A DNA stretch of 64,000 bases, taken from the NCBI RefSeq assembly GCF_013122565.1, contig NZ_CP053258.1. One strand, given 5' to 3'. A model generated the notes under the pieces. The model was given only the letters and a program-made list of their open reading frames with translations, was not told the DNA's origin and did no database searches. How positions within the stretch are numbered: position 1 is the first letter of the stretch; every line of letters starts with the position of its first letter. This stretch comes from Escherichia coli (GTDB lineage Bacteria > Pseudomonadota > Gammaproteobacteria > Enterobacterales > Enterobacteriaceae). Position numbers and translations under genes: made by a program. Shown here in pieces: positions 42,125 through 42,286 of this stretch.

Positions 42125-42286
42125 ATGTCACTGGAAAATGCCCCCGACGATGTCAAACTGGCCGTCGATTTAATTGTGCTGCTGGAAGAAAATCAGATCC
42201 CAGCCCGCACCGTGCTGCGCGCGCTGGATATTGTAAAACGCGATTATGAAAAGAAATTAACGCGCGATGATGAGGCGGAAAAGTGA
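42125..42286 (+). CDS. ybaM: Small protein YbaM (53 aa)
   Basis: Below the ORF-track length threshold; hand translation gives [62 protein letters not shown] 6 nt upstream; starts 14 nt after the priC stop. Confidence 0.75.

Follow-up and report, generated by a model that had tools for sequence, protein, structure and literature searches.

rsmS (ybaM), the small gene downstream of priC in Escherichia coli: a conserved operon locus and a probable helper of CsrA/RsmA

Introduction

FliW of Bacillus and other flagellated bacteria and CesT of enteropathogenic E. coli are protein partners that antagonize CsrA. The small protein RsmS appears comparable in that it, too, has been proposed to act by protein–protein contact and not by way of a sponge RNA, but with the opposite sign, since ortholog genetics indicate that it supports RsmA activity. 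Functional genetics of RsmS has been done with its orthologs in Pectobacterium and Serratia, and little is available from E. coli. In Pectobacterium, rsmS mutations suppress a mutant of rsmB (a CsrB-type sRNA), and rsmS single mutants grow normally, are hypervirulent, and overproduce exoenzymes and the quorum signal, while protease is also raised upon rsmS overexpression (PMC6418279). An rsmS mutant of Serratia shows increased cas expression with rsmA being epistatic to rsmS, and the contribution of rsmS is independent of rsmB and additive with pigX/csrD (PMC8450108). Loss of rsmS in these orthologs generally raises the expression of targets that are repressed by RsmA/CsrA (PMC6418279, PMC8450108).

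The phenotypes of the orthologs (plant cell-wall-degrading enzymes, OHHL, carbapenem, and CRISPR-Cas expression) are specific to those organisms, whereas the E. coli reports, as far as they are cited elsewhere, are limited to matches in large screens and to a competitive disadvantage when the envelope is under stress. Several of these reports are known to us as cited by Monson et al. (PMC6418279). They include a yeast two-hybrid pair of YbaM, the E. coli RsmS, and CsrA that these authors cite as unvalidated, with the underlying two-hybrid map given as Rajagopala 2014 and the bar-coded small-protein mutants as Hobbs 2010. From the same source come a reduced half-life of ybaM mRNA in a csrA51 mutant, a halving of priC-ybaM mRNA in a csrD mutant, and a competitive disadvantage or fitness cost of the E. 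coli ybaM deletion under envelope stress. In addition, ybaM appears among the Keio mutants on the list of a published Congo-red curli screen; from the main text of Esquerre 2016 it is absent. A later study (NAR 2021) words the contact of the two proteins as "shown to directly interact", which rests solely on the cited two-hybrid pair (PMC8450108), and our literature search found no biochemical evidence of an RsmS–CsrA complex.

The gene is known as a neighbor of priC, which encodes primosomal replication protein N''. In Pectobacterium atrosepticum, rsmS lies downstream of priC with its own Shine–Dalgarno sequence, and a terminator-carrying transposon in priC of Pectobacterium is polar on rsmS and can be complemented by rsmS but not by priC (PMC6418279). 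[quoted passage not shown] (PMC6418279), priC and ybaM are given as one operon in a review of replication restart (PMC5778457), and work in E. coli included a control for polar effects of priC303::kan on ybaM (PMC539235). Here, we describe the corresponding locus in a 64,000-nt stretch of E. coli DNA (the window; contig NZ_CP053258.1), starting from a preliminary description that had been made from the sequence alone.

Results

Identity of the 53-codon gene

The gene at 42125–42286 on the plus strand has 53 codons and is delimited by the ORF list, family models, the RefSeq annotation, and conservation. Direct reading of the sequence places its ATG at 42125 and its TGA at 42284–42286, and the peptide quoted in the preliminary description equals the translation of this ORF letter for letter. 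The start is unambiguous because this ATG is the first in-frame start codon past the preceding stop. Length by itself is no evidence for a gene in this place, given that 49 ORFs of 30 aa or longer overlap the surrounding 3.5-kb stretch, and it is conservation that lifts the ORF above chance (see below).

Family models identify the product as RsmS. The Pfam family DUF2496 (PF10689) matches residues 2–44 across profile positions 1–43 of 43 with 84.7 bits (cutoff 25; E = 3.5e-24), and the NCBIfam RsmS equivalog model NF008266 reaches 94 bits over positions 1–45 of 46 (cutoff 76). All of the invariant alignment columns of the family core (25/25; an N-terminal core followed by TVL-AL-IV-RDYE in a protein of about 50 to 60 aa) are present in the protein of the window; the invariant residues include D8, K11, D15, L16, L19, L20, E21, R39, D40, and Y41. 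The PF10689 domain and the small size are shared with RsmS of P. atrosepticum (ECA1172) and of Serratia. DUF2496 is the sole Pfam match, and the search returned no homology to FliW or CesT.

The name ybaM given to the ORF at first sight is correct, though it is the old name of a gene that RefSeq now calls rsmS, with "pleiotropic regulatory protein RsmS" as its product name in E. coli. That the gene is missed by a 60-aa threshold holds for the first-stage ORF list only and not for public annotation. A megablast search with positions 41500–42500 matched 5,425 of 5,426 complete E. coli genomes, and the annotation among the full-length matches listed consists of priC, rsmS, ybaN, and mscK. In two annotated E. 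coli regions, RefSeq likewise places rsmS 13 nt past priC, at coordinates that correspond exactly to those of the ORF. The identical protein sequence is public as RsmS of Escherichia coli on at least 1000 contigs. Since the ORF is already annotated and its exact protein is public, the gene is known; it is neither new nor unannotated.

The RsmS protein of the window has 53 aa and 6.1 kDa and is acidic (pI 4.6). AlphaFold2 predicts a two-helix hairpin with helices at residues 8–22 and 27–52 (mean pLDDT 91.4), and the C-terminal tail is variable. Neither a sequence search of the PDB, which gave no match even at E ≤ 10, nor a Foldseek search against the PDB (0 matches) returned a relative. The product of rsmS would be an acidic cytoplasmic protein with a helical hairpin fold.

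Conservation of the reading frame

Loss of the reading frame in related genomes had been named as the observation that would speak against a gene. We compared the window with 82 related loci from three families (Enterobacteriaceae, Erwiniaceae, and Morganella; n = 83), and a scan of one genome per species yielded 80 loci; the sampled genera comprise Escherichia, Citrobacter, Salmonella, Klebsiella, Raoultella, Enterobacter, Trabulsiella, Pantoea, Erwinia, Winslowiella, Morganella, and others. The rsmS frame is intact in every member of the set (83/83). Across codons 1–45, all 83 sequences keep the annotated frame open and none has an open frame +2 or +3, and mean column entropy follows the codon, with 0.46, 0.25, and 1.21 at the first, second, and third position (n = 83). 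The median dN/dS is 0.15 among 1,871 pairs with 0.1 < dS < 1.5; relative to rsmS of the window, it ranges from 0 to 0.04 inside Escherichia and from 0.05 to 0.31 in other genera. Every sampled locus has an ATG-initiated ORF starting with MSL(E/Q/K)(N/T)AP, and a 4-mer Shine–Dalgarno core precedes the ATG in 78 of the 82 related loci. In Morganella and Pantoea, RsmS retains 67–75% identity versus 35–40% for PriC. RsmS is a protein under strong purifying selection.

The length of the ORF falls between 48 and 64 aa in 81 of the 82 related loci. The sole exception is a locus of Citrobacter amalonaticus AUH_CA_2023_1 (L048:3001-3312), in which rsmS reads through to 103 aa with a tail that is unrelated beyond residue 44 and enters REP-like sequence; this points to a frameshift or a missing stop codon in the strain, or to an assembly error. 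Another locus, L053, is a 320-nt contig in the assembly of Pseudomonas yangonensis MY50 that bears an Enterobacter-type priC end together with rsmS; it most likely represents contamination of this assembly and not a Pseudomonas rsmS.

The priC-rsmS operon

The gene upstream of rsmS, priC, occupies 41584–42111 on the plus strand and encodes 175 aa from a GTG start. Its assignment follows from the Pfam PriC family (E = 1.9e-51) and NCBIfam NF007500 (334.7 bits, cutoff 249), in agreement with the RefSeq annotation. Between the priC stop codon (TAG, 42109–42111) and the rsmS start lies a spacer of 13 nt (42112–42124, plus strand; CAATGGAGAGAGT). It contains the GGAGAG motif proposed as ribosome-binding site at 42116–42121, with the GGAG core 5 nt from the ATG. 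The start had been placed 14 nt after the priC stop, and the ATG indeed opens at the 14th base. The corresponding gap in P. atrosepticum measures 37 bp versus the 13 nt of the window, while downstream position, separate Shine–Dalgarno sequence, and operon logic are the same.

The preliminary description had suggested co-transcription with priC. Such co-transcription is supported because the 13-nt gap holds no terminator-like site on the plus strand in a terminator scan, because 63 of the 80 loci sampled in other species have a gap of 10–19 nt, and because of the published genetics cited above. The only terminator-like site overlapping the junction belongs to the minus strand and is located where priC ends. 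All loci with an upstream flank (80/80) have priC upstream of rsmS on the same strand, and the window has the arrangement that describes RsmS/YbaM, in which the gene follows priC in the same orientation and the same operon, with the operon status coming from the literature.

Gene layout and published work (PMC6418279) point to the divergent ybaN-priC intergenic region (41515–41583) as the presumed site of the plus-strand operon promoter. The sole promoter-like site that a consensus scan reports in this intergenic region is on the minus strand, and no plus-strand site was found anywhere in 41400–42600, the region before priC included. This makes the scan uninformative on promoters, and its silence inside priC lends weak support against an internal promoter.

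The intergenic region downstream of rsmS

The convergent spacer between rsmS and mscK measures 211 nt, and repeats, RNA folding, and Rfam delimit a 3′ untranslated or intergenic segment at 42296–42497 (plus strand). Two REP elements with cores at 42340 and 42428 are nested between 19-nt direct repeats at 42296–42314 and 42468–42486. The second repeat copy contains a GGGGC...GCCCC hairpin followed by a T-tract (CTTTTGTTT), which is likely the plus-strand terminator of the operon, judging from its sequence; the terminator scan missed it because its 11-nt loop exceeds the limit of the scan. RNA folding of the spacer gives −89.5 kcal/mol (z = −5.5). The only Rfam match in positions 40000–44000 is a sub-threshold one to the REP-derived naRNA4 at 42407–42443, downstream of rsmS, with none overlapping the rsmS ORF.

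Strain E69 (L005) of E. coli has a different GC-rich repeat at this spot, so that it appears to be a recurrent insertion site for repeat elements. The alignments of several E. coli genomes break off ca. 16 nt short of the rsmS stop codon or inside the downstream REP region.

Comparison with E. coli K-12

The window shares the layout of the K-12 locus (ybaN / priC-rsmS / REPs / mscK), and its RsmS is identical to K-12 YbaM/RsmS (WP_000051153.1; likewise 53 aa) at 52 of 53 residues. The difference is residue 28, which is Arg (CGC) in the window and Ser (AGT) in the K-12 type allele. At this variable alignment position, E. albertii, Citrobacter, and Klebsiella have Arg as their consensus, and the Arg28 allele itself is common in E. 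coli. Seven further nucleotide differences separate the two rsmS ORFs, every one of them at a third codon position.

Differences from the K-12 type extend to priC, where 36 of 528 nt but only 2 amino acids differ. For mscK of the window (42498–45860), the best complete E. coli genome reaches at most 98.3%, with all 5,424 falling into the band of 95–99%. These comparisons suggest that the Escherichia lineage of the window may stand somewhat apart from the sampled complete E. coli genomes, or that it may belong to a taxon filed under another name, for example Shigella.

Gene neighborhoods in other lineages

Monson et al. described rsmS as always immediately downstream of priC (PMC6418279). Erwiniaceae contradict this, given that a predicted membrane ORF of 81 aa (MGLL...) lies between the two genes, for example at L066:2747-2992 in Pantoea and L077:2719-2964 in Erwinia. 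This ORF shows a weak match to Transgly_assoc (PF04226) in Erwinia and none in Pantoea. The priC-rsmS gap measures about 290–424 nt in most other Erwiniaceae loci. We considered and rejected a hidden ComFB gene in this gap, which instead holds the 81-aa membrane ORF. Downstream of rsmS, Erwiniaceae carry a TetR/AcrR-like gene in place of mscK.

In distant, non-enterobacterial lineages, homologs of DUF2496 are found in a block of the order DinG-like helicase – TauE – priC – histone-deacetylase-like – (ComFB) – DUF2496. A ComFB gene (PF10719, E from 1e-15 to 1e-18) is directly upstream of DUF2496 in four of seven informative contexts (L083:2733-3177, L084:174-643, L085:2615-3189, and L089:2673-3237). 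The two genes overlap by 8, 4, and 8 nt in three of these and are 122 nt apart in the fourth, and priC is located one to three genes upstream, after the DinG-like helicase gene. Two other contexts (L092:2078-3183 and L093:2078-3183) have no ComFB, and DUF2496 there overlaps the end of a histone-deacetylase-family gene (PF00850) by 4 nt. This deacetylase gene directly follows priC in both, and L083 and L089 likewise have a deacetylase gene after priC. The ORF upstream of the DUF2496 homolog in L094 is not ComFB-like, and no ComFB-like sequence was found in the window.

ComFB proteins have recently been shown to be receptors of c-di-GMP/c-di-AMP and are reported to be absent from enterobacteria (PMC12448109). 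The same 2025 paper on the ComFB family mentions neither DUF2496 nor a priC neighbor (PMC12448109), and a literature search for "DUF2496" matched unrelated work only.

Discussion

Taken jointly, the identity of the gene as rsmS and its operon structure are as good as certain. In the picture that best fits the data, rsmS follows priC as the final gene of a two-gene operon. Transcription would start from a promoter located upstream of priC, and translation of rsmS would use the separate GGAG Shine–Dalgarno sequence in the 13-nt spacer past the priC stop. Ortholog genetics together with the E. coli data make a small cofactor that supports CsrA/RsmA on its mRNA targets the best-supported model of RsmS function. 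We are confident, if a good deal less so than about the identity of the gene, in the explanation as a whole, that is, the known rsmS gene in the priC operon encoding a helper of CsrA/RsmA. An action of RsmS through the Csr/Rsm pathway is, for its part, probable. RsmS might bind CsrA/RsmA directly and raise its effectiveness on target mRNAs, and we would give direct binding to CsrA as the mechanism about even chances; this helper action would be independent of sponge RNA. Two observations sit less easily with the model. Deletion and overexpression of rsmS share the same phenotype, and a simple helper model would need further assumptions on stoichiometry to predict this. A role as CsrA helper also gives no reason for the ancient linkage of the family to priC or, among distant lineages, to ComFB.

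The main rival to the cofactor model is that RsmS alters the amount of CsrA/RsmA, via the protein or the stability of rsmA mRNA, and not the efficiency of RNA binding, in which case it would still be a component of the Csr/Rsm pathway. Monson et al. proposed this as an explicit alternative (PMC6418279), and the epistasis seen in Serratia fits it equally well (PMC8450108). We nevertheless regard it as unlikely, as our literature search turned up no study in which RsmA had been quantified in an rsmS mutant and the two-hybrid match, as cited, suggests contact, though contact could equally lead to degradation.

A second rival links RsmS primarily to PriC, replication restart, or DNA metabolism, with the Rsm phenotypes being indirect. 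The same-strand linkage to priC throughout the flanked loci of three families would fit such a role, as would its persistence in distant lineages within a block that opens with a DinG-like helicase gene, but operon neighbors need no common function. A replication-restart role is unlikely because priC by itself on a plasmid is enough to restore the priC303::kan dnaA(ts) phenotype, for which ybaM is dispensable (PMC539235), and the virulence phenotype of the priC insertion in Pectobacterium, with its complementation by rsmS and the normal growth of the mutants, also speaks against it (PMC6418279). Altogether, we consider a primary link to PriC very improbable. That the 53-codon ORF is a chance open frame in the 3′ region of priC and untranslated is next to impossible and, despite the frequency of short ORFs in this stretch, refuted by a frame intact in the whole set at saturating synonymous divergence with dN/dS around 0.15 and conserved Shine–Dalgarno sequence and ATG, besides the curated family models passed and the ortholog mutant phenotypes complemented in trans by the rsmS ORF.

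With regard to the origin of the CsrA/RsmA helper, DUF2496/RsmS could have begun as a translationally coupled partner of ComFB in an ancient gammaproteobacterial priC block, with Enterobacterales having lost ComFB and kept RsmS behind priC. We put this forward, from gene neighborhoods, as a speculative scenario that we consider unlikely. If true, RsmS could link c-di-GMP/c-di-AMP signaling to Csr/Rsm in Vibrio- or Alteromonas-like bacteria, and the CsrA-related role of RsmS in enterics would be a remnant of a ComFB circuit.

The locus of the window has a common allele in an arrangement that is standard for E. coli, and it adds nothing on the mechanism of RsmS. It illustrates that a 60-aa ORF cutoff conceals real, conserved, and functionally important small genes, as rsmS was recovered here from the raw sequence. 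We note that rsmS is an under-studied input to CsrA/RsmA, a global post-transcriptional regulator of carbon storage, motility, biofilm formation, virulence, and, in Serratia, CRISPR-Cas expression.
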